A stretch of DNA of 10,721 bases from a virus (lineage: Duplodnaviria; Heunggongvirae; Uroviricota; Caudoviricetes). A program made the translations under genes and the position numbers. The stretch lies in the IMG/VR virus record IMGVR_UViG_2563366908_000002, one strand, 5' to 3'. Position 1 is the first letter of the stretch. Every line of letters starts with the position of its first letter. Shown here piece by piece: positions 1-10,721 of this stretch. The notes beneath the pieces are model-generated. The model did not search any database and was not told where the DNA came from. It saw only the letters and a program-made list of their open reading frames with translations.

Positions 1-21
1 GCCTGCATCCTGAACCAGGAA

Positions 22-1530
22 TTATTCTTCGGACTGGTCGTCGGTGTGCTGCGGCTCCTGTCGTTTCGTTGCGGCACTGCTGCCTCCTTTATCACTGGCC
101 GGATCGGTATCAAATACCAGATCCAGCTTGCGGTTTTCATCAATTTCGGCCTTGCGCCGACGTTTGACATCATCCGGATTACGACCACCTGCACGTACCC
201 AGTCTGATTCTGTCGCCGCTCCACCACGAATCTGAATTTTCCAGGCCTCAGCCTCCTTAACAGGGTCAATCCACGGCATCACCGGTCCGGAATACACCGC
301 GGTATACAGTGAAGAACGATCAAGATCGCGGGGTAGCCTGATAACACCGGATGCCACAGCCTGTTTCAGCCAGGCACGATACATCGGGCGGGTGACGGCA
401 CCAATAAACCAGTCCTGCAGGATCAGGTAGCCATCAGTAGACTCAACCAGTTCCTGACGCTGGGCGCTGTAAGTGCCGTTATAGTTGCGTGCCGTACTGG
501 AAAAACTCAGACGACTGCCCGCCGCCACGGCACGCAACTGACCATTACGAAAAGTTTCAAGATTAGGATTGGGGCGATCCGACTTCACCATTCCAATTTC
601 TTCGCCGGGTTTCAGATCGTCGTAAATAATGCCTGGCTGAATGGTAAGCTCGCGTTCCTTATCCTTGCTGCCATTACCATCCGGTTCATAGCTCTGCCCG
701 TCGCCTTTCCGGATGTACATCCCCAGAGCAGCGGCGATCCTTGCTGCAGTCAGCTCAGAATCTTCATACTCTTTCAGGGCACTGAGGCGGATCAGCACAC
801 CGGACAACAAAGACGTCCCGCGCATCTGGTGCAGACGGCGAACAAATTTAAGATGCAGCATTCGCTCTGCATCCACTTCTTTGGTTTCCATCTGCCGTCC
901 GGATACGGGACGGCTTTTATACACCAGATATTTTTCGGGACGCCCCCAGTCATCAACAAACACGCCCTGATTCAGCCTGTTGCTCTCATCACTGGTCATG
1001 GGAATAAAGTCTGGCTCGAGCGCCTCCAGCCAGAAATGAACATCGGCAGAAGGCGTCAGGCTGTTTATGCGCCCGGAAACCATCTGGGCAAACACCTCAC
1101 CATCGCGCAGCCAGGTACGCAGCATCAGACGTTCCAGCATCGGACGGGTAAACTGCCCGGTGACTTCCGGACTGACAGACCATTCACTCCATCGGGTGCG
1201 TATCTCCGCTGCCAGATCACGGGCAATGGCCCCATTGCGTAATACCGGATGTGGCTCGACAATAATCCCGTTTTTCCCCACCACCCGTTCTTCCAGCTTG
1301 TCAAATACACCAATAACCAGATCGTGGTTGTTATCAAGGTAACGGGCCTGCTCACGTAACGACACGGCCCCGTACTGGCTTAACTGGTCGGCAGTTCGGT
1401 TTTCCCGCCGGGCTTTGTGTGTCCGTGTCGTTTTTACGGCCTCATAAGCCTGGATCACCGCACGGGAACGCAGCCTTGCCGCTTTCCATCCTGGTGAAAA
1501 AACGCCAATCACATCATCAATAATTGCCAT
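22..1530 (-). CDS. phage portal protein (lambda gpB-like by position and size)
   Basis: Track ORF 22..1602 begins at a GTG; the first ATG (1530..1528) overlaps the stop of the upstream W-like gene (TGATG). About 502 aa, last gene in a Nu1-A-W-B order as in lambda. Local motif resemblance to lambda gpB is recalled from memory, not aligned. Confidence 0.8.
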   Translation of the reverse strand: MAIIDDVIGVFSPGWKAARLRSRAVIQAYEAVKTTRTHKARRENRTADQLSQYGAVSLREQARYLDNNHDLVIGVFDKLEERVVGKNGIIVEPHPVLRNGAIARDLAAEIRTRWSEWSVSPEVTGQFTRPMLERLMLRTWLRDGEVFAQMVSGRINSLTPSADVHFWLEALEPDFIPMTSDESNRLNQGVFVDDWGRPEKYLVYKSRPVSGRQMETKEVDAERMLHLKFVRRLHQMRGTSLLSGVLIRLSALKEYEDSELTAARIAAALGMYIRKGDGQSYEPDGNGSKDKERELTIQPGIIYDDLKPGEEIGMVKSDRPNPNLETFRNGQLRAVAAGSRLSFSSTARNYNGTYSAQRQELVESTDGYLILQDWFIGAVTRPMYRAWLKQAVASGVIRLPRDLDRSSLYTAVYSGPVMPWIDPVKEAEAWKIQIRGGAATESDWVRAGGRNPDDVKRRRKAEIDENRKLDLVFDTDPASDKGGSSAATKRQEPQHTDDQSEE

Positions 1531-1742
1531 CAGAACCTCGCCAGCCGGTACCCGGGATGCCCCCGTCGTCGTGTAATCAGAGCCGCAAGGCGGCGCTCCC
1601 ACTCCTGCCGTCCCTGCCGGATCTCAGATAAGTTTTCCATGGTCATCTGCTGACCATTAAAGGTGACGGATTTTCCGTCCAGCACCGCCATTTCAGCTTC
1701 CGTATAACGCTGAATCATGGCTTCAATATCATTCTGATTCAT
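1530..1742 (-). CDS. gpW-like head-tail joining (head completion) protein
   Basis: About 70 aa ORF between large terminase and portal, the position and size of lambda W. GGAGG sits 6 nt upstream of the ATG at 1742 (third codon of track ORF 1530..1748), which overlaps the terminase stop (ATGA). C-terminal RRRG motif resembles lambda W. Confidence 0.7.
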   Translation of the reverse strand: MNQNDIEAMIQRYTEAEMAVLDGKSVTFNGQQMTMENLSEIRQGRQEWERRLAALITRRRGHPGYRLARF

Positions 1743-3841
1743 AACCATCCTCCGGAAGTCAGCCAGGGGTTAACATCGTCAGTTACTGTTTTCTTCCGTT
1801 TTTGTTTTTTAACAGGCGTGGATACCGGTTCCGGTGAGGGTGACGGTTCGGTACTGTCCGGGACACACTCCAGCCAGGTTTCCCGGCTCGCCCACTCCGG
1901 TGCATCCGGCCAGCGGATCTTTTCGTATCCATGCAGAATGACCAGAGCCTCGGCATACACCATCAGGTCAAAGGCTTCGTTGGCACCGCGACCCGGCTTA
2001 CTCCATTTCCCGTCACTGCTCCGCTCTTCATACGTCAGTTCGTCGTAAAACCAGCTCCCCAGCCAGTCAGGGAAATGCACATAGCCTGGACCTGGCGAGT
2101 CACGCCATAACGCGTTATTCACCCGGTCTTTCAGGGCATCCGTCTGAAGAAGCCAGAGCGGCACATCACCTGCGGCCTGCGCCCGTCGGCCCGTTCGTCC
2201 GGTGTTATCAGGGAATGTACGGGTGATCAGTTTTGCGCGCCGGATGCTGTCGCCCTTAAACAGGTAAATACGTTTACCAAGGCCATCACGACGGCAACGA
2301 CGCCAGAATTTATAGGCATTATCAGTGACCCCGTCTTCACCGCCGGAGTCCACCGCCATTGCCATCAGTCGCATTTGTTGAGAAGGATCGGAGGCCAGCG
2401 GCCAGCTTTTATGAAAAACATCCGTCAGCAGGACATCCCAGTCTTCCGGATAGCTGGCCGGATCAATTCGCTGGCTCTCCCCGTCGCTGTCACCGCGCAA
2501 TGACTGCGTGATATTGTAACGATCAATAATCCAGCGTTCGCCACGGCTGCCATAGCCTGTTACCTGAACCACAAAACGGCGATGACGTCCCGCCTGCACA
2601 TCCACTGTCGCCACAAGGAAATTAACGCCATCCGGCACACTGCGGGAAGGAACTGGCTCTGCCCGCTGCTCAAGCAGTTCACTTTTTCGTTGCTCCATGC
2701 TGGCGCGGGGAAGATAAGGTAATCCCCAGTCGGTATTGATAACCGTCTTGAGTGTCTCTTCACTTCCGGTTGTCTCGTATTCCTGTTCTGCAGTAAGCAG
2801 TTTGTAAACGAGTTGCGAGAGTGTCTGATAAGCAGCTGCCGGACCCTCCATCCAGAATGACGCAATACGTGAACGCCGGGGATCACCATAACGACTGCCA
2901 TCTGCATTGATGGATTCACCATCCCGTAACCAGACCCCACGTCCGTTCAGCTCGCGTTTTTGTTCAGGCAAAATCCGTCCTGAACAGGAAGGACACTGAA
3001 TATAAGCCGCCTCACTTGCCAGCACAGGATCGGCAATATCACGGAAACCAGCAACCACATCGCCGCAGGGCTGAAAATACTCACCACAGTGTGGACAGGG
3101 CCAGTACCAGCGACGGCGATCGCCACGGTTATAGAGCGACAGTATACCCGTGGTTGGTGGAGCCTCATGCGGTGAAGTCCGTCGCCATTTCACATCCTTC
3201 ACATCCCTGCCGGGGGAACTCTCCACCAGCGTCATACCACTGGACATAAATGTGGTGGTACGTTTTGAGGCAAGAGAGAAGGCATCCCCCTCACCATCAA
3301 TATCTTCCGGAAAACGGTCATAATCCGTCAGCGCCACGCATTTATAATCTGATGAAGACATGATATTGACTGACGGCCAGCCGATTTTCAGGTAGTTGCC
3401 AGCAAGGAATGTTCTGTCATAAACGTTGTTGTCATTTTTGTTCGGACTCAGGCGACTGACCACTTCCGGGCTGACGCGAAACGTTCTGGCGAGTCGTTTT
3501 TTGGAGTGTTCGCGGGCTTTTTCCTCCGTCATCTGAATGATCAGCATATCAGCAGGATCGCAAATCACGTTGTAAATCACCCAGCCGTCAATCAGGCCGA
3601 TAGTCTTGCCGGTTCGTGCCGGGCCAACAAATATCACTGCGTCGTATTCACGCGAGGCCAGGCAGTTCATAGGCTCAATAACATACGGTGCCACCAGCGG
3701 ATCCCACGGGACTGAGTTCCCTGCCCCCATAGGCACCCGCATATACTGAGCAACGGCATCAGCAACCCGCATTCGTCTCGGTGCGCGAAGGATATAACCT
3801 GAATCGGTTCGTGCTGCCTTTGCGGTTTCCTGATTCAGCAT
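1739..3841 (-). CDS. terminase large subunit (lambda gpA family)
   Basis: 700 aa ORF with Walker-A-like VGPARTGKT, a WPCPHCGEYF motif resembling lambda gpA ACPHCGEE, WIIDR resembling gpA WLIDR, and C-terminal NEAFDLMVYAEAL resembling gpA NEALDCFVYALAAL. ATG at 3841 overlaps the small-terminase stop (TAATG). Confidence 0.9.
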   Translation of the reverse strand: MLNQETAKAARTDSGYILRAPRRMRVADAVAQYMRVPMGAGNSVPWDPLVAPYVIEPMNCLASREYDAVIFVGPARTGKTIGLIDGWVIYNVICDPADMLIIQMTEEKAREHSKKRLARTFRVSPEVVSRLSPNKNDNNVYDRTFLAGNYLKIGWPSVNIMSSSDYKCVALTDYDRFPEDIDGEGDAFSLASKRTTTFMSSGMTLVESSPGRDVKDVKWRRTSPHEAPPTTGILSLYNRGDRRRWYWPCPHCGEYFQPCGDVVAGFRDIADPVLASEAAYIQCPSCSGRILPEQKRELNGRGVWLRDGESINADGSRYGDPRRSRIASFWMEGPAAAYQTLSQLVYKLLTAEQEYETTGSEETLKTVINTDWGLPYLPRASMEQRKSELLEQRAEPVPSRSVPDGVNFLVATVDVQAGRHRRFVVQVTGYGSRGERWIIDRYNITQSLRGDSDGESQRIDPASYPEDWDVLLTDVFHKSWPLASDPSQQMRLMAMAVDSGGEDGVTDNAYKFWRRCRRDGLGKRIYLFKGDSIRRAKLITRTFPDNTGRTGRRAQAAGDVPLWLLQTDALKDRVNNALWRDSPGPGYVHFPDWLGSWFYDELTYEERSSDGKWSKPGRGANEAFDLMVYAEALVILHGYEKIRWPDAPEWASRETWLECVPDSTEPSPSPEPVSTPVKKQKRKKTVTDDVNPWLTSGGWL

Positions 3842-4335
3842 TACTCCTCCTGCTGTAATTCCTCCTCATCATCCGCACCTGCTTCGGTCACCCGCAGGGC
3901 TATCTGATCGCGCAGATCATCAATAATGGACTGAACACGGCTCACAGCGGCAGGCTGCAGACCGCAGTCACGTTCCAGAATATCCGGTAATGTCTCCAGC
4001 ACCTGCACGACCGCTTTTGCCCAGATGGCAAACTCCCGTCTGACATCACTGGCCGGAATGAGTTGCGCCGTTTCCTGTTCGAACTTAAGACGCTCACGTT
4101 CAGACTGATACCAGGCTTTGCGCTCATGCGCGTCCATTTCGCCTTCTGCAACCGGCGGTGGTAATGCCAGAAATGCCGACACAATATCAACCACCCGATA
4201 AAGCTTGAGGTTGCTTTCATGCCCCCCTGCAACGGGTAGATTTTGCAGCCTTGCCGCAGCAGTCTGGCGATGTACACCTGACAGTGCCGCCAGTTGACTG
4301 ATATTCAGCGTCAGATTTTTTAACTCTCGATCCAT
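3841..4335 (-). CDS. terminase small subunit (Nu1-like DNA-packaging protein)
   Basis: 164 aa ORF immediately upstream of and coupled to the large terminase. N-terminal helix-turn-helix-like segment (LTLNISQLAALSGVHRQTAAARL) and acidic C-terminus. GGAG 5 nt upstream of the ATG at 4335. Lies about 175 bp from the putative cosN, as Nu1 does in lambda. Confidence 0.8.
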   Translation of the reverse strand: MDRELKNLTLNISQLAALSGVHRQTAAARLQNLPVAGGHESNLKLYRVVDIVSAFLALPPPVAEGEMDAHERKAWYQSERERLKFEQETAQLIPASDVRREFAIWAKAVVQVLETLPDILERDCGLQPAAVSRVQSIIDDLRDQIALRVTEAGADDEEELQQEE

Positions 4336-4509
4336 ACCCGCTCCAGAATGTTTTAAACATGCATCTTGCGAACAACTTTAGGCAAACGGTGTTAGTGATG
4401 AACAAAAAACAATCAGAATCGACACCATAAAAATAAATCCACTGTAATATCAATCAATTACAGTAGTGGTGATGACGAATAAAATTTCAAAAACTAGCCT
4501 TTTTCCGCG

Positions 4510-4521
4510 ACGCTCCCGCCC
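4510..4521 (-). other. putative cosN cohesive-end site
   Basis: Minus strand reads CCACG-GGGCGGGAGCGT-CGCGGAAAAAGG, against lambda TTACG-GGGCGGCGACCT-CGCGGGTTTTCG recalled from memory. Conserved flanks with a variant 12-mer core, at the expected distance upstream of the Nu1-like start. Confidence 0.5.
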
Positions 4522-4550
4522 CGTGGCAGGGGCCCCCACCGGGAGGACCC

Positions 4551-4573
4551 GACAGCCTGACAGCCTGACAGCC
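4551..4573. repeat. tandem 8-bp repeat GACAGCCT, about 3 copies, beside cosN on the side opposite the Nu1-like gene
   Basis: Direct reading: gacagcct gacagcct gacagcc. Confidence 0.8.
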
Positions 4574-4709
4574 GTGACGAGCATCTGATACAGCGCTTTA
4601 CATAATGGCATAGGAATAATTCAGAAGGACATCACAGCATGCCCACACAAATTAGTGTGAGTGTCCTGTTTCTTCCTACGCACAGGACTGACGAGCATGA
4701 GGGGAAAAT

Positions 4710-4877
4710 ATGCGAACCATAAATGCCTCATCTTCAGCAATGCAGCCGGCATCCGAACAGGACGATATTGTAAATTCACCTAATTACGAGGACATTGCAG
4801 TAGTTGAATTGCAGCTCTGTATTAGCCTGACAGTGACAGAATGCGATATTGACTCTGTCACAGGTGAAATAGTTTGA
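4710..4877 (+). CDS. hypothetical small acidic protein (55 aa), below the ORF-track cutoff
   Basis: Hand translation gives MRTINASSSAMQPASEQDDIVNSPNYEDIAVVELQLCISLTVTECDIDSVTGEIV. GAGGGG sits 5 nt upstream of the ATG. No recognisable family. Confidence 0.3.
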   Translation: MRTINASSSAMQPASEQDDIVNSPNYEDIAVVELQLCISLTVTECDIDSVTGEIV

Positions 4878-4897
4878 ATGATTAGCAGTTATGGTGC

Positions 4898-5104
4898 TCA
4901 GTCAACCACCAGGGAATAATCCTTCGAATTCTTATCGTGCTTCACCAACGCTGCCTCAATTGCCCTGAATGCTTCCAGAGACACCTGATGTTCTATACAT
5001 GCAATTACAACATCCGGGTAACTCATAGAAATGGTGCTATTAAGCATATTTTTTACACGAATCAGATCCAACGAGAGTTCATCAGCAGATTGTTCTTTAT
5101 TCAT
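4898..5104 (-). CDS. hypothetical 68-aa protein (possibly YnfO-like accessory protein of Qin-type prophages)
   Basis: ATG-initiated ORF with GGAG 7 nt upstream. Divergent from the YdfO-like gene and convergent with the 55-aa ORF. Family assignment is from locus memory only. Confidence 0.5.
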
Positions 5105-5404
5105 TTTGTCGCTCCATGCGTTTGCTCGTCATCTAGCGGTTAAAATATTACTTCAAATCTTACTGCATAAAAGAGGAAAAGTATGAAAGTTTGAGTACAT
5201 CGACCTTACATACATCTGTCGGTTGCATATCCCTCCTGGATGCCAGCAAGGCTCAATTTTGTTACGCAATCAACACTATTCATTAAAAACAGGCTTAATA
5301 TTTGACATAAATCATCAACAAAACACAAAGAGGTCAGACCAGATTAAAACAATAAACACGATAATGCAAACTACGCGCCATCGTATCACATGGAAGGTTT
5401 ACCA

Positions 5405-5815
5405 ATGGCTCAGGCTGCCATTTTTAAAGAAATATTCGATCAAGTGCGTAAAGATTTAAACTGTGAATTATTTTATTCTGAGCTAAAACGTCACAATATC
5501 TCACTTTATATTTACTATTTAGCCACAGATAATATTCACATTGTGTTAGAAAACGACAACATAGTGTTAGTAAAAGGACTCAAAAAGGTTGTAAATGTTA
5601 AATTCTCCAGAAACAAACATCTTATAGAGACCTCCTATAATAAGTTGAAATCAAAAGAAATCACATTTCAACAATACAGGGAAAATCTTGCTAAAGCAGG
5701 AGTTTTCCGATGGGTTACAAATATCCAGGAACACCAAAGATATTACTATGCCTTTGATAACTCATTACTATTTACTGAAAGCATCCAGAAAACTACACAG
5801 ATCTTACCACGCTAA
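5405..5815 (+). CDS. ydfO: DUF1398-family protein, YdfO-like
   Basis: Track ORF 5390..5815; preferred start is the ATG at 5405 with GGAAGG 6 nt upstream (136 aa). Matches the size and position of YdfO between nohA and gnsB in K-12 Qin, recalled from memory. Confidence 0.6.
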
Positions 5816-5920
5816 ACCATAACGTCCGGCTTCTCTCACTCCTGAGCCGGACTGCATTGGTTTAATAAAAACCATCAACAATTGTGATTTAGATATTCGG
5901 AACCATTCAAATATAACAAA

Positions 5921-5940
5921 ACCCCGTAAAAACGAGGTTT
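5921..5940 (-). terminator. weak terminator-like hairpin downstream of the GnsB-like gene
   Basis: Minus strand cctcg-ttttta-cgggg (one G-U wobble) followed by TTTTGTT. Confidence 0.3.
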
Positions 5941-5966
5941 ATGGATAAATTTTATTATTGAATACA

Positions 5967-6140
5967 TCAGATTAAATTAATCTTGACATCATAGCTTTCA
6001 AGACCCGTCATTTTTTCCCGTGCGGTAAACTGAATACTGGTAACTTCTTTCCCGGTCTTTTTCTTAAGTTCAATAATTTTTTTTGTTATATATTCAGAAA
6101 TATCTGCTTCTGCTTTTGTTTTTAAGTTTTCAATATTCAT
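5967..6140 (-). CDS. gnsB: GnsA/GnsB-family protein (57 aa), not in the ORF track
   Basis: Hand translation gives MNIENLKTKAEADISEYITKKIIELKKKTGKEVTSIQFTAREKMTGLESYDVKINLI, very close to E. coli GnsA/GnsB as recalled (MNIEELKKQAE...FTAREKMTGLESYDVKIKIM). AGAGGAA precedes the start; an extra in-frame ATG lies 3 nt upstream at 6143. Confidence 0.75.
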   Translation of the reverse strand: MNIENLKTKAEADISEYITKKIIELKKKTGKEVTSIQFTAREKMTGLESYDVKINLI

Positions 6141-6311
6141 CATTTCCTCTTTTAGTCTGTTATGACTTTCCAGTTACACAGTAAGTCGATTATATGGTGC
6201 AAACGTGTAAAAGATAAGATGAAACATCGCAATAATCAACATACGATAGTCTAAATTTTACACAAACAGACAAAGAGAATTTTCCTGAATTATCAATACA
6301 ATAGCATCAAA

Positions 6312-6542
6312 TCAACTCAAGAGCCTTATTGCTGCTTCCAGAATTTCTTCTGAAGTAACATGTCGATCCGCGGCTACATAAATGACTTTATGATCTCCGG
6401 TCAGAGATGGAAACCCTGCGGCCATTACAGTAAGGTGTGTTTTTTCGCCATTTGGATATTCACGCATGATGGTGTTAACTCCAGTCATCGCTGGCACTAC
6501 CACTGCTGGTTCAGAGTTAAAAAAAACTATGATTTTTTTCAT
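6312..6542 (-). CDS. small protein (76 aa), possibly YmcE/YnfN-family cold-shock-associated partner of Gns
   Basis: Track ORF 6312..6584; the 6584 start would overlap a terminator T-tract, so the ATG at 6542 (MKKIIVFFNSEP...) is preferred. Sits directly upstream of the gnsB-like gene, like ymcE-gnsA and ynfN-gnsB in K-12. Family assignment is from memory. Confidence 0.5.
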   Translation of the reverse strand: MKKIIVFFNSEPAVVVPAMTGVNTIMREYPNGEKTHLTVMAAGFPSLTGDHKVIYVAADRHVTSEEILEAAIRLLS

Positions 6543-6590
6543 GATGTTACCGTAGTATGTGAGTATCCATCGAATAGATACCAAGCAAAA

Positions 6591-6609
6591 AAGCTCCCGA
6601 AGGAGCCTT
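6591..6609 (-). terminator. Rho-independent terminator-like hairpin, possibly bidirectional
   Basis: gctcc-cgaa-ggagc stem-loop; on the minus strand it is followed immediately by TTTTTTGC. About 200 nt downstream of the cspI stop. Confidence 0.5.
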
Positions 6610-6813
6610 CATTTTCACTTTTTTAAATCCAACGACAGACGGCTGGCATTTAAGTATTGTGAAATATTATCAAATGTAATCATCATTGATTTACAAAAGA
6701 TACATTTTGCCCCGAAAGGATTCATGTCAGAAACATCAAAAGATGATGTTCTATACTGGGAACCATGACAACACGGGCATCTAAAGTGAATATGGTTTGT
6801 AATATTGTCTACC

Positions 6814-7026
6814 TCAAAGCGCCACTACATGAACAGCGGCAGGACCTTTAGGTCCGTTCTCAATACCAAATTCAACTTCCTGATTCTCAGTTAATGTTTT
6901 GAAATCGTTGCTCTGAATTGCTGAGAAATGGACAAACACATCTTTGCTGCCATCTTTCGGCGTGATGAAACCAAAACCTTTTTCAGGGTTAAACCATTTC
7001 ACTAAACCAGTCATTTTGTTAGACAT
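6814..7026 (-). CDS. cspI: cold-shock protein CspI (CspA family)
   Basis: 70 aa beginning [38 protein letters not shown] with RNP1/RNP2 motifs; matches E. coli CspI as recalled. AAGG ribosome-binding site upstream of the ATG. Confidence 0.93.
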
Positions 7027-7176
7027 AATTATTACCTTTTGAAGAAATTAGCCCTTGGGCAGAATGGTCCGAAAAAAAATATCAGAGAGAAAAACCAACA
7101 AGGAAATCTCAAGAGGTACAAATAATAAAATTATAACAATGACTGCTTCAGATAAATTTGTAACAAACCAGAACAC

Positions 7177-7206
7177 CATTAACGCATGATTAACCACCCA
7201 TAGCAA
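7177..7206 (-). promoter_or_regulatory. putative cspI promoter with cspA-like architecture
   Basis: Minus strand TTGCTA, 17-18 bp spacer, then GTTAAT/TTAATG, with an AT-rich tract upstream. Resembles the cspA promoter (TTGCAT ... CTTAAT) as recalled. Implies a 5' UTR of about 145 nt, consistent with the long leaders of csp genes. Confidence 0.45.
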
Positions 7207-7389
7207 GGATTACTTTTGTAAAGAAAAACACAGCAATGAAAGAATAGCTTTATTTATTAATAATAACGTGTCATTCTGATTAAGACCTTTTATCTTACCC
7301 TTAAGATTTCAGGAATTTTGGCTCATGGAAGAGTCCTTTTTATTTAAATTTTACATTCCGCGATGTAAATGTTCCGATTTAATATTACC

Positions 7390-8413
<1,024 letters not shown>

Positions 8414-8417
<4 letters not shown>

Positions 8418-8701
8418 ATATATTTATGATGAGGACGCTCGTGCTTATTGGCAGGATTTTCAATCTTAAAGGAGTACTGATGCTGCAGATAAGACTCAAC
8501 TTTTTCTGACAATTTTTCTGCTACTTCCAGGAAGACTTGCCGGACGCTCCTTCTGGCTGCTGCCTCATAAAACTCCAGCGCAGCTCCTTCAACACGGTCC
8601 ATGGCGACATCCAGGTCAAAAATTTCACCGTCAAAGCGTTCTTTGTCCTGTAAGGCTACAGTTACCGTAACTTTATTCTCAAAATTACGGACTCCTTTCA
8701 C
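8414..8701 (-). CDS. ydfR: YdfR-like small protein between holin and lysozyme
   Basis: 95-codon ORF in the position ydfR occupies in K-12 Qin. The only start codon at its 5' end is a GTG with no clear ribosome-binding site; the next in-frame ATG is 33 codons in. Stop overlaps the lysozyme ATG. Confidence 0.5.
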
Positions 8702-8729
8702 AACCAGTTCATAGTCTTGAGTCGTTGGA

Positions 8730-8945
8730 TTACTCTCCTCTCGCAGCCTTACGCCTGTCTTCTTTAATCTTGAAATAAAGATTTGTCAGATACGTCAGCA
8801 GGCCAAAAACCAGGCTACCCAGCACACCGATTGCAGCCCACTGTGACGGAGTTACTTTATCGAGTAACTGCAATGCCCAGAAACCAGCATTACCCGCCGA
8901 TGTGCCATAGGCAACACCTGTTGTTAACTTATCCATTGATTTCAT
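8730..8945 (-). CDS. essQ: class II pinholin (phage 21 S21 / EssQ family) with dual-start motif
   Basis: 71 aa: [71 protein letters not shown]. Two transmembrane segments and a Met1-Lys-Ser-Met4 dual start. GAGGAT precedes the ATG at 8945. The track's extension to 9020 is discounted. Confidence 0.88.
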
Positions 8946-9164
8946 ATCCTCACCCCGATGTACACGGATGGTGCAATATGTTTGAAAAGATCGGAGTCTA
9001 CGGGGTAGTTTTGACAGCACACGTTGTTCTCAACGGCGCTAAAAAAACATACACATTAAAAATGTGGGTAATTATTTTGAAAGAAAGTCATATATAAAAT
9101 AATAATACGAGAAATGTTTTCATATTTAGTGTACTGTATACGGCCATTTATACAGGAAAAGCCT

Positions 9165-9335
9165 ATGTCAGAACGTAAAAACTCAAAATCACGCCGTAAT
9201 TATCTCGTTAAATGTTCCTGCCCAAACTGCACCCAAGAGTCAGAACACAGTTTTTCAAGAGTACAAAAAGGTGCCCTTTTGATCTGCCCTCATTGCAACA
9301 AAGTATTCCAGACAAATCTTAAAGCTGTAGCCTGA
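9165..9335 (+). CDS. small basic zinc-ribbon-like protein (56 aa), possibly YnfU-like
   Basis: MSERKNSKSRRNYLVKCSCPNCTQESEHSFSRVQKGALLICPHCNKVFQTNLKAVA with CxCxxC ... CxxC. AGGAAAAG precedes the ATG at 9165 and a terminator follows. Opposite strand to the lysis genes. The YnfU assignment is a memory-based guess. Confidence 0.55.
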   Translation: MSERKNSKSRRNYLVKCSCPNCTQESEHSFSRVQKGALLICPHCNKVFQTNLKAVA

Positions 9336-9401
9336 TTGATTTTATTAGTAACAAGTATTTTTTATATTTTAATAATATATTTAAAGCAGATAAATAAATA
9401 T

Positions 9402-9425
9402 CCTCCGGCATAGCCGGAGGTTTTT
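9402..9425 (+). terminator. Rho-independent terminator downstream of the zinc-ribbon gene
   Basis: cctccggc-ata-gccggagg (8-bp GC-rich stem) followed by TTTTT on the plus strand. Confidence 0.65.
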
Positions 9426-9501
9426 CAAATGCGCCTATAAGGCTCTCTTACCAGCCGCGCCCTAACAGGCGCACACGATCTGACATTTGCATCCAACTTC
9501 G

Positions 9502-9960
9502 TTACTTACGGCCCGTAAACGGGCTGCCCGGATAGGGAATCGATAACTGCTCTCCCATTTTATCCTCTTCAAGCTGGTGCTTTATGTAATCCTGTATCTT
9601 CGCCGTGTTCTTACCCACTGTATCGACGTAGTACCCTCTGCACCAGAACTCCCTGTTCCTGTATTTGAATTTCAAATCACCAAACTGCTCGTAAAGCATC
9701 AGACTGCTTTTCCCTTTCAGATATCCCATAAACCCGGATACGCTCATTTTAGGCGGGATCTCCACAAGCATATGGATATGATCTGCACAGCATTCAGCTT
9801 CCAGAATCCGTACGCTTTTCCACTCACACAGCTTTCTCAAAATACTGCCTATTGCTCTACGCTTCTCTCTGTAGAACACCTGTCTTCGGTATTTTGGCGC
9901 AAAAACTATGTGATATTTACAGTTCCATCGGGTGTGCGCTAAGCTCTTTTCGTTCCCCAT
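9502..9960 (-). CDS. tnpA: IS200 transposase TnpA (Y1 HUH transposase)
   Basis: MGNEKSLAHTRWNCKYHIVFAPKYRR ... HIHMLVEIPPKMSVSGFMGYLKGKSS ... YYVDTVGKNTAKIQDYIKHQLEEDK; near-identical to Salmonella/E. coli IS200 TnpA as recalled. GGGGG precedes the ATG at 9960. The track ORF extends 17 codons further upstream. Confidence 0.95.
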   Translation of the reverse strand: MGNEKSLAHTRWNCKYHIVFAPKYRRQVFYREKRRAIGSILRKLCEWKSVRILEAECCADHIHMLVEIPPKMSVSGFMGYLKGKSSLMLYEQFGDLKFKYRNREFWCRGYYVDTVGKNTAKIQDYIKHQLEEDKMGEQLSIPYPGSPFTGRK

Positions 9961-10070
9961 TGGGACCCCCTTTTGATTTCTTGTTTGACACTTGCAGTTG
10001 CCAGACCGCAAGGTGTTTTAACAAATCAAAAGGGGTTTTAATAACTGGCTCAAAGCTGAAAGCTTTCCGG

Positions 10071-10093
10071 AACCCCCAGCCTAGCTGGGGGTT
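10071..10093. repeat. perfect palindrome in the IS200 left end
   Basis: aacccccagc-cta-gctgggggtt, a 10-bp perfect stem. Candidate subterminal hairpin of the kind IS200/IS605 transposases recognise on single-stranded DNA. Confidence 0.6.
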
Positions 10094-10106
10094 TTCTGTG
10101 CACAAT

Positions 10107-10130
10107 AAAAAACCCGCCTGAGCGGGTTTG
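10107..10130 (-). terminator. IS200 left-end terminator hairpin facing incoming minus-strand transcription
   Basis: Minus strand caaacccgc-tcag-gcgggttt followed by TTTTTT. Matches the known IS200 feature that blocks read-in transcription of tnpA. Confidence 0.7.
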
Positions 10131-10410
10131 AGATTGTGGTGCTTTTTGTGGGAGTCATCCACTTACGCACTTTGTTTTGCCATGCCAGCAGTTAGCTTCT
10201 GCTGTAAAACTATTCATGCAGCAAACCTGCACTTCACCACAATGGTTAGCATACTTTTCCTGATTAAGATTTTGCCAAATATGCTAGCCATTGTTTCATG
10301 TATTGGACCTCCTTACTTTTTATTAAAGAGATCCAATATTCACTACTCTGTCCGTATCTCTACTCAGGCATCAGCCTTCTTCGTTATCGTATACAGACGA
10401 GCGATGAATT

Positions 10411-10626
10411 TTAATCAGTAATGATGACATTTGCTGCTGCAGGACCTTTAGCACCACTCTCTATAGAGAAGGTAACCTTTTGACCTTCAAATAAGGTTCG
10501 ATAATTATCATTCTGAATCGCAGAAAAATGCACAAACACATCTTTACTACCATCAACAGGAGAAATAAAGCCGAAACCTTTATCAGCGTTAAACCATTTT
10601 ACTAAACCAGTCATTTTATTTGACAT
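10411..10626 (-). CDS. cspB: cold-shock protein CspB (CspA family)
   Basis: 71 aa: [71 protein letters not shown]; matches E. coli CspB as recalled. The 5' leader runs off the window end. Confidence 0.93.
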
Positions 10627-10721
10627 TCGGTGATGCTGCCAACTTACTGATTTAGTGTATGATGGTGTTTTTGAGGTGCTCCAGTGGCTTCTGTTTCTAT
10701 CAGCTGTCCCTCCTGTTCAGC

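Follow-up and report, generated by a model that had tools for sequence, protein, structure and literature searches.

The question raised by this locus is what becomes of late transcription in a lambdoid prophage when an insertion sequence settles downstream of the antiterminator gene Q and upstream of the genes for lysis and packaging. The window, i.e., the whole stretch of DNA that was analysed (10,721 nucleotides of IMG/VR virus record IMGVR_UViG_2563366908_000002, Caudoviricetes), had been described in a first-pass annotation as carrying an intact IS200 between cspB and the holin gene. It had been proposed there that the terminator hairpin of the element either puts Q-dependent antitermination to the test or attenuates lysis and head gene expression and so domesticates the prophage. 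The explanation favoured here, to which as a whole a probability of roughly 75% is given, is that an ordinary IS200C inserted at a target typical for this element and that its effect on late expression is small.

The gene content was assigned from the list of open reading frames, Pfam matches and RefSeq annotation. All phage genes of the window lie on the minus strand, except ynfU; in minus-strand order they are:

10411-10626, minus strand: cold-shock moron cspB, which precedes the insertion sequence (Pfam CSD; RefSeq annotation in the prophage of E. coli MSB1_7C)
9165-9335, plus strand: ynfU, a small zinc-ribbon gene in the interval between insertion sequence and holin gene, antisense to late transcription (Pfam PF23499; RefSeq)
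8730-8945, minus strand: essD, holin of phage 21 type, the lysis gene that comes first after the insertion sequence (Pfam PF04971, Phage_holin_2_1; RefSeq)
After essD and before rrrQ: ydfR
7884-8417, minus strand: rrrQ, lysozyme (Pfam Phage_lysozyme)
7390-7887, minus strand: rzpQ, spanin (Pfam DUF2514/Rz)
6814-7026, minus strand: cspI
Between cspI and the DUF1441 gene, minus strand: several small morons
3841-4335, minus strand: DUF1441 protein, probably the small terminase
1739-3841, minus strand: large terminase of 700 amino acids, open reading frame intact
Last in this order: portal, open reading frame intact

A holin-endolysin-spanin cassette is followed on the same strand by terminase and portal genes (Pfam, open reading frames, RefSeq), and head genes come next in the prophage of E. 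coli MSB1_7C (L001). This prophage is full-length, from the excisionase to the tail genes, and is 99.73% identical to positions 1-10628 of the window; its Q-type antiterminator gene ydfT precedes cspF and cspB, and the portal gene is succeeded by head and tail genes. Also in phage Tritos (L012, OV696610.1), which matches window positions 4522-9398 and 10104-10628 with 99.6-99.7% identity, a Q gene is present; the window itself stops within an IS1, and no Q gene is visible in it. Because of the identity to Tritos, the window prophage can be regarded as Tritos/PhiR42_1-like and apparently complete, unlike the truncated Qin remnant of K-12, which presumably is without the intact packaging and head genes that the window carries. 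The earlier placement of the insertion sequence ahead of the lysis and packaging genes was borne out by these near-identical prophages, in which it also lies downstream of Q, and so was the orientation of tnpA, which lies on the strand of the holin, endolysin, spanin, terminase and portal genes.

The element in the window is the known IS200C of the IS200/IS605 family, in an ordinary and intact copy. Its parts and the native features next to its left end are:

9393-10103, minus strand: complete IS200C, 711 bp, left end 10103, right end 9393 (empty-site alignment and ends of multiple copies)
9502-9960, minus strand: tnpA, Y1 HUH transposase of 152 amino acids, HUH motif H61-I-H63, catalytic tyrosine Y125 (Pfam PF01797)
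9970-10093, minus strand: STnc490, IS200 left end plus 5'UTR (Rfam RF01405; 146.4 bits, E = 1e-30, gathering score 56, model positions 1-124 of 124)
10071-10093: IS200 left-end hairpin, element nucleotides 11-33, folding at -19 to -22 kcal/mol
9402-9420: IS200 right-end subterminal hairpin, terminator-like on both strands (-15.5 and -15.9 kcal/mol)
10104-10108, minus strand: target pentanucleotide TTATT, directly 5' of the left end, native and unduplicated DNA
10110-10129, minus strand: native intrinsic terminator hairpin and T-tract, about 280 nt downstream of cspB and outside IS200

The Pfam model Y1_Tnp (PF01797) matched tnpA over the full length of the domain with 130.3 bits, and this match, together with that to STnc490 and the RefSeq name, upholds the presence of an intact IS200 between cspB and the holin gene. 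The motifs 'DHIHMLV' (with H61 and H63) and 'QDYIKHQ' (with Y125) are intact and align with the same motifs of solved transposases; by phmmer, tnpA is homologous to the solved TnpA proteins of Sulfolobus IS200, ISHp608 and ISDra2. In RefSeq the identical sequence is labelled 'IS200/IS605-like element IS200C family transposase', and WP_000526135.1 is found at the same position in the prophage of MSB1_7C. Within the 711 bp, tnpA is the only open reading frame with a family match; tnpB is absent. Subterminal hairpins are located at both ends, and the termini, GTGCACAG... and ...ATATTTATT, form no inverted repeats. The left-end hairpin, the evidence for which comes from folding and from the literature, is presumably also the subterminal hairpin that binds TnpA; the terminator scan missed it on both strands, since the A and T residues beside it are taken up into its stem. 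The right-end hairpin is followed by TTTTTCAAAT on the plus strand and by ATATTTATTT on the minus strand and is kept in all intact IS200C copies examined. Every defining feature of the IS200 group that can be judged from sequence was found in the element, and by analogy we infer that IS200C would move by single-strand 'peel-and-paste' transposition. The window copy agrees in 711 of 711 nucleotides with three of the other copies (L004, L007 and L013), and such 100% identity among dispersed copies suggests recent mobility.

The first-pass annotation had placed the element at 9440-10145, which is about 45 bp off. This interval falls 47 bp short at the right end, so that the hairpin at 9402-9420 is lost, and takes in 42 bp of native DNA with the T-tailed terminator hairpin at 10110-10129; it was ruled out by alignment with an empty site and by the ends of multiple copies. 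The empty-site comparison, already proposed in that annotation, was made with the allele of EC590 (L002), which aligns to window positions 9001-9398 and 10104-10628 and leaves as sole ambiguity a 6-nt AATAAA present on both sides. The multi-copy comparison drew on the window copy and on loci L003-L011, L013 and L015-L022: first ten copies from unrelated loci, and then eight more, which represented seven further distinct sites. To keep the flanks from influencing the selection, these last eight were picked with a query from the interior of the element only. All 18 independent copies start GTGCACAGAAAACCCCC, in the sense of tnpA GTGCACAGAAAACCCCCAGC, and all except one finish GGAGGATATTTATT; the 3' terminus of the intact copies is CCGGAGGATATTTATT, and each of them is 711 bp long. 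In the exceptional copy (L020, NZ_CP158426.1, NRZ14408), the right end is cut by the IS256-like element IS1414, an instance of nested IS decay. The empty-site alignment and the ends common to independent copies together define the element as 9393-10103 (711 bp). A 6-bp target duplication of AATAAA was considered and rejected, since all intact copies end TTTATT whatever the flank; for the same reason AATAAA is the element's own right-end terminus, which resembles the target.

The same sequence context was found at all 18 sites. Directly before the left end stands a T-rich pentanucleotide, which is of the form TTNTT in 17 sites and TAATT in one (TTTTT, 12 sites; TTATT, 3; TTGTT, TTCTT and TAATT, 1 each). 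The pentanucleotide or left end lies 3-7 nt behind a strong hairpin (-12.8 to -28.9 kcal/mol), again in 18 of 18 sites; in the first 11 sites, folds averaged -17 kcal/mol next to the left end and -5 kcal/mol next to the right end (Mann-Whitney p = 4e-5). Judging from sequence, the hairpins resemble intrinsic terminators that belong to adjacent genes, among which, on the hairpin side, are fabF, secF, guaA, eno, gndA, pqqU, wzzB and carB. At every site checked, tnpA is co-directional with the hairpin-side gene, except in L011 (NZ_CP019243.1, Combat2C1), where IS200C points against the ren-ninB operon. The copy of Combat2C1 and that of phage Lambda_ev058 (L013) are located on opposite faces of one lambda-type tR2 palindrome between ren and ninB, each after TTATT. 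From this pair, the site seems to be set by hairpin and pentanucleotide rather than by the direction of operon transcription. Since all 18 sites have the same context, insertion at the cspB terminator is a typical IS200C event. The IS200C sites also fit the rule of the IS200/IS605 family, insertion 3' of a fixed short sequence without duplication (PMC7290912).

It appears doubtful, in spite of this regularity, that IS200C is a true terminator-homing element, which needs both the hairpin and the T-rich pentanucleotide of an intrinsic terminator; alternatively, T-runs alone may be the target, and selection may leave the copies that are adjacent to terminators. No passage naming terminators outright as targets of IS200 or IS1541 was found in the searchable literature, and one may be published elsewhere. 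If there were true terminator homing, IS200C would systematically enter phage operons which are punctuated by terminators and depend on antitermination, as at tR2 in Lambda_ev058 and Combat2C1 and at the cspB terminator here. Such copies would then be natural probes of the ability of N- or Q-modified polymerase to override stacked terminators, and the extra hairpins of ST405-type carriers, in addition to the IS1 in this strain, might measurably damp late expression.

The conspicuous T-tailed hairpin in front of the element is the phage's own terminator. By folding and by the terminator scan, it consists of AAACCCGCTCAGGCGGGTTT at 10129-10110, followed by TTTATT (-18.4 kcal/mol, z = -5.2), and it is also present in K-12 MG1655, in EC590 and in phage Tritos. 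In viable phages it is located 1-7 nt from the insertion point, and because of its presence late transcription in Tritos, PhiR42_1 and HannyBb must pass a terminator here. Of the earlier statement that the terminator of the insertion sequence faces the incoming transcript, the part concerning the IS200 left-end terminator (PMC5435999) can stand, but the hairpin at 10110-10129 is native. On the plus strand, the right-end hairpin followed by TTTTT (9402-9429) is a canonical intrinsic terminator about 67 nt past the stop codon of ynfU; as the native hairpin of the empty site has no T-tail on this strand, ynfU incidentally acquires a new terminator through the insertion.

Late transcription in lambdoid phages is carried out by a Q-modified, terminator-resistant RNA polymerase. 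IS200C transposed into the cspB-ynfU spacer of a Qin/Tritos-like lambdoid prophage and landed directly 3' of TTATT after a GC-rich hairpin, the native cspB terminator, with tnpA in the same direction as cspB; no coding sequence was disrupted. Two further hairpins thereby came to stand between the late promoter and the lysis genes, namely the left-end terminator and the right-end hairpin with its ATATTTATTT. Just downstream of ydfT in the prophage of MSB1_7C, a promoter match, of consensus level only, was found at 16231-16202 (minus strand), and a hairpin with T-tract at 16156-16133, about 45 nt after this candidate promoter; the two resemble a lambdoid PR'/tR' pair and are a candidate for it. 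On its way to the holin gene, a Q-modified transcript would have to cross tR', cspF (antisense), cspB and the native terminator behind cspB, even in viable phages free of the insertion sequence. We infer that the Q-dependent late transcript crosses the IS region and that read-through is largely preserved. The effect of the insertion on induced late expression is most likely small, since Q-modified polymerase already has to pass tR' and the native cspB terminator.

This reasoning assumes that Q is connected with the lysis genes, and a second insertion sequence at the end of the window bears on the connection:

10629-10721, plus strand: left end of IS1, which separates the ATG of cspB from its Shine-Dalgarno sequence and is cut by the end of the window

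The sequence 10629-10721, which we take to be the left end of IS1, begins where homology to all relatives, including MSB1_7C and EC590, stops (10628), and it occupies the remainder of the window; related records have IS1 transposase annotations here or close by. The insertion strips cspB of its cspA-type thermoregulator (cold-shock) 5'UTR, and the match to Rfam RF01766 is cut at the 5' end. IS1 is located either between Q and the lysis genes or in place of that connection. It is accordingly possible, if a good deal less probable than the explanation favoured above, that IS1 at 10629 is the insertion that matters and IS200 is irrelevant, because IS1 cuts the late genes off from Q and PR' or else stands at the breakpoint of a rearrangement by which Q and PR' were removed or inverted. 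A precedent is found in LCP30S3_I3 (L014, NZ_CM149863.1, about 3800-7400), where an independent IS1 is inserted in the same cspB leader, 8 nt further upstream, and goes together with an inverted hokD-ydfU-ydfT(Q) block; the 5' region of cspB may be hit by IS1 repeatedly and serve as a point of rearrangement. A simple insertion of the 768-bp IS1, however, would leave Q upstream, in DNA that lies beyond IS1 and outside the window. The exact IS1-cspB junction together with IS200, moreover, had no match in the complete E. coli genomes and was found in 0 viral contigs and 0 metagenome contigs.

Next to be weighed against a small effect of an ordinary IS200C is a large one: the hairpins of the element could substantially cut Q-dependent transcription into essD-rrrQ-rzpQ, the terminase and the head genes, so that lysis and phage yield are lowered and the prophage is fixed. 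In Salmonella, the IS200 left-end terminator is reported to stop about 85% of incoming transcripts (PMC5435999), and a bidirectional Rho-independent terminator was located at nucleotides 12-34 of the element (PMC4513863), with which the window hairpin at nucleotides 11-33 agrees. Given such termination of unmodified polymerase, some polarity is plausible here if Q modification is inefficient. The position of the element between Q and the lysis genes, in the same orientation, and its fixation in 59 genomes of what is seemingly one clinical lineage, would also be in keeping with strong attenuation. Yet this outcome is considered unlikely, since antitermination must already work in viable phages with the native terminator 1-7 nt from the insertion point. 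The carrier prophage, furthermore, is still full-length in MSB1_7C, and its late genes show no visible decay, with 99.7% identity to Tritos and intact open reading frames for terminase and portal.

Phage Lambda_ev058 (L013, LR597651.1, 4002-4712) also argues against strong attenuation. It contains an IS200C identical in 711 of 711 nucleotides to that of the window. This copy directly follows tR2 in the interval from ren to ninB, has the orientation of the early-right operon and precedes Q. Phages with the suffix 'ev' are plaque isolates from viromes (Mathieu et al., PMC6969025), and Lambda_ev058 is included by the naming scheme. Since a plaque-purified phage carries it there, an IS200C within an antiterminated operon is compatible with a working lambdoid phage, and by analogy with Lambda_ev058 sufficient read-through would be the prior expectation also for the window. 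The two cases differ, as the element of Lambda_ev058 is in the N-dependent early-right operon of a different phage and that of the window in a Q-dependent late operon, and as it is Lambda_ev058 that is known to form plaques.

It is very improbable that the IS200 copy was exapted, i.e., kept for a regulatory RNA (a 5'tnpA-derived sRNA or art200) or as terminator of ynfU. The full STnc490/5'UTR module is intact, the 5'tnpA RNA of IS200 regulates invF in Salmonella (PMC5435999), and the canonical plus-strand terminator behind ynfU, where the native hairpin is without a T-tail, would suit such a role. On the other hand, carrier genomes have 10-35 places that match queries containing the element, mostly other IS200 copies, so that this copy adds little RNA dosage; 1,580 genomes manage without it, and there is no evidence of selection.

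These numbers come from a survey of the occupied and the unoccupied site. With a 200-nt query over the reconstructed junction, which had to be covered uninterrupted, the empty site was detected in 1,580 of 5,426 complete E. coli genomes; with a query of 1,001 nt that reached across the two junctions of the element, the filled site was detected in 59. The cspB-ynfU-essD region is free of the element also in the isolated phages PhiR42_1, Tritos and HannyBb (97.4-99.8% identity). For K-12, the earlier statement that no IS200 is present here proved right: the site is uninterrupted, and the match that contains the native hairpin starts exactly at 10104. Two of the 59 carriers, WCHEC96200 and WCHEC4533, are ST405 according to the literature, and only these two are typed. 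It appears that the insertion occurred in the ancestor of one E. coli lineage and that the 59 carriers are seemingly a single clinical lineage. IS200/IS605 elements are capable of precise excision, and an ancestral arrangement with IS200, from which the empty allele arose by excision, was therefore considered; it has a next to negligible chance and was rejected on distribution, with 1,580 empty sites across diverse strains and three independent viable phages versus 59 filled sites and an element 100% identical to copies elsewhere. That the arrangement is an insertion, as had been assumed, agrees with the uninterrupted site in K-12, in the complete genomes and in viable phages.

The discovery value is small, since the element is catalogued and RefSeq annotation already covers the same insertion in 59 genomes. 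The results are mainly corrective: the ends are 9393 and 10103, the hairpin at 10110-10129 that had passed for a terminator of the insertion sequence belongs to the phage, and the site is typical for IS200C. Natural material on antitermination versus the IS200 terminator is thereby pointed out, in the form of ST405-type carriers in comparison with IS-free Tritos-like lysogens, and of Lambda_ev058 in comparison with lambda.

Comparison with known systems places the locus as follows. Tritos, PhiR42_1, HannyBb and the Qin prophage of K-12 have in common with the window the module Q-cspB-ynfU-essD-ydfR-rrrQ-rzpQ-cspI, with 97-99.8% identity and including the native terminator hairpin, and differ from it by the empty site, which in the window is occupied by IS200C. 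From the IS200C of E. coli in RefSeq, the element itself is no different: nucleotides (711 of 711), transposase WP_000526135.1, ends and target context are the same, and only the location is particular, one that is common to 59 complete genomes. The IS200 of Salmonella, studied in the laboratories of Beuzon/Casadesus and Haniford, has 707-709 bp compared with the 711 bp of E. coli IS200C, and the termination of about 85% and the control by art200 were measured there, on a copy other than that of the window. IS608 and ISDra2 have as targets TTAC or TTGAT; unlike these elements, the IS200C of the window is without tnpB, and its target is a T-rich pentanucleotide beside a hairpin. Common to all of them are a homologous Y1 HUH transposase (E = 4e-19 for IS608 and 2e-16 for ISDra2 with tnpA of the window), subterminal hairpins, lack of terminal inverted repeats, lack of target duplication and insertion 3' of a short fixed sequence, according to the rules of the family (PMC7290912).
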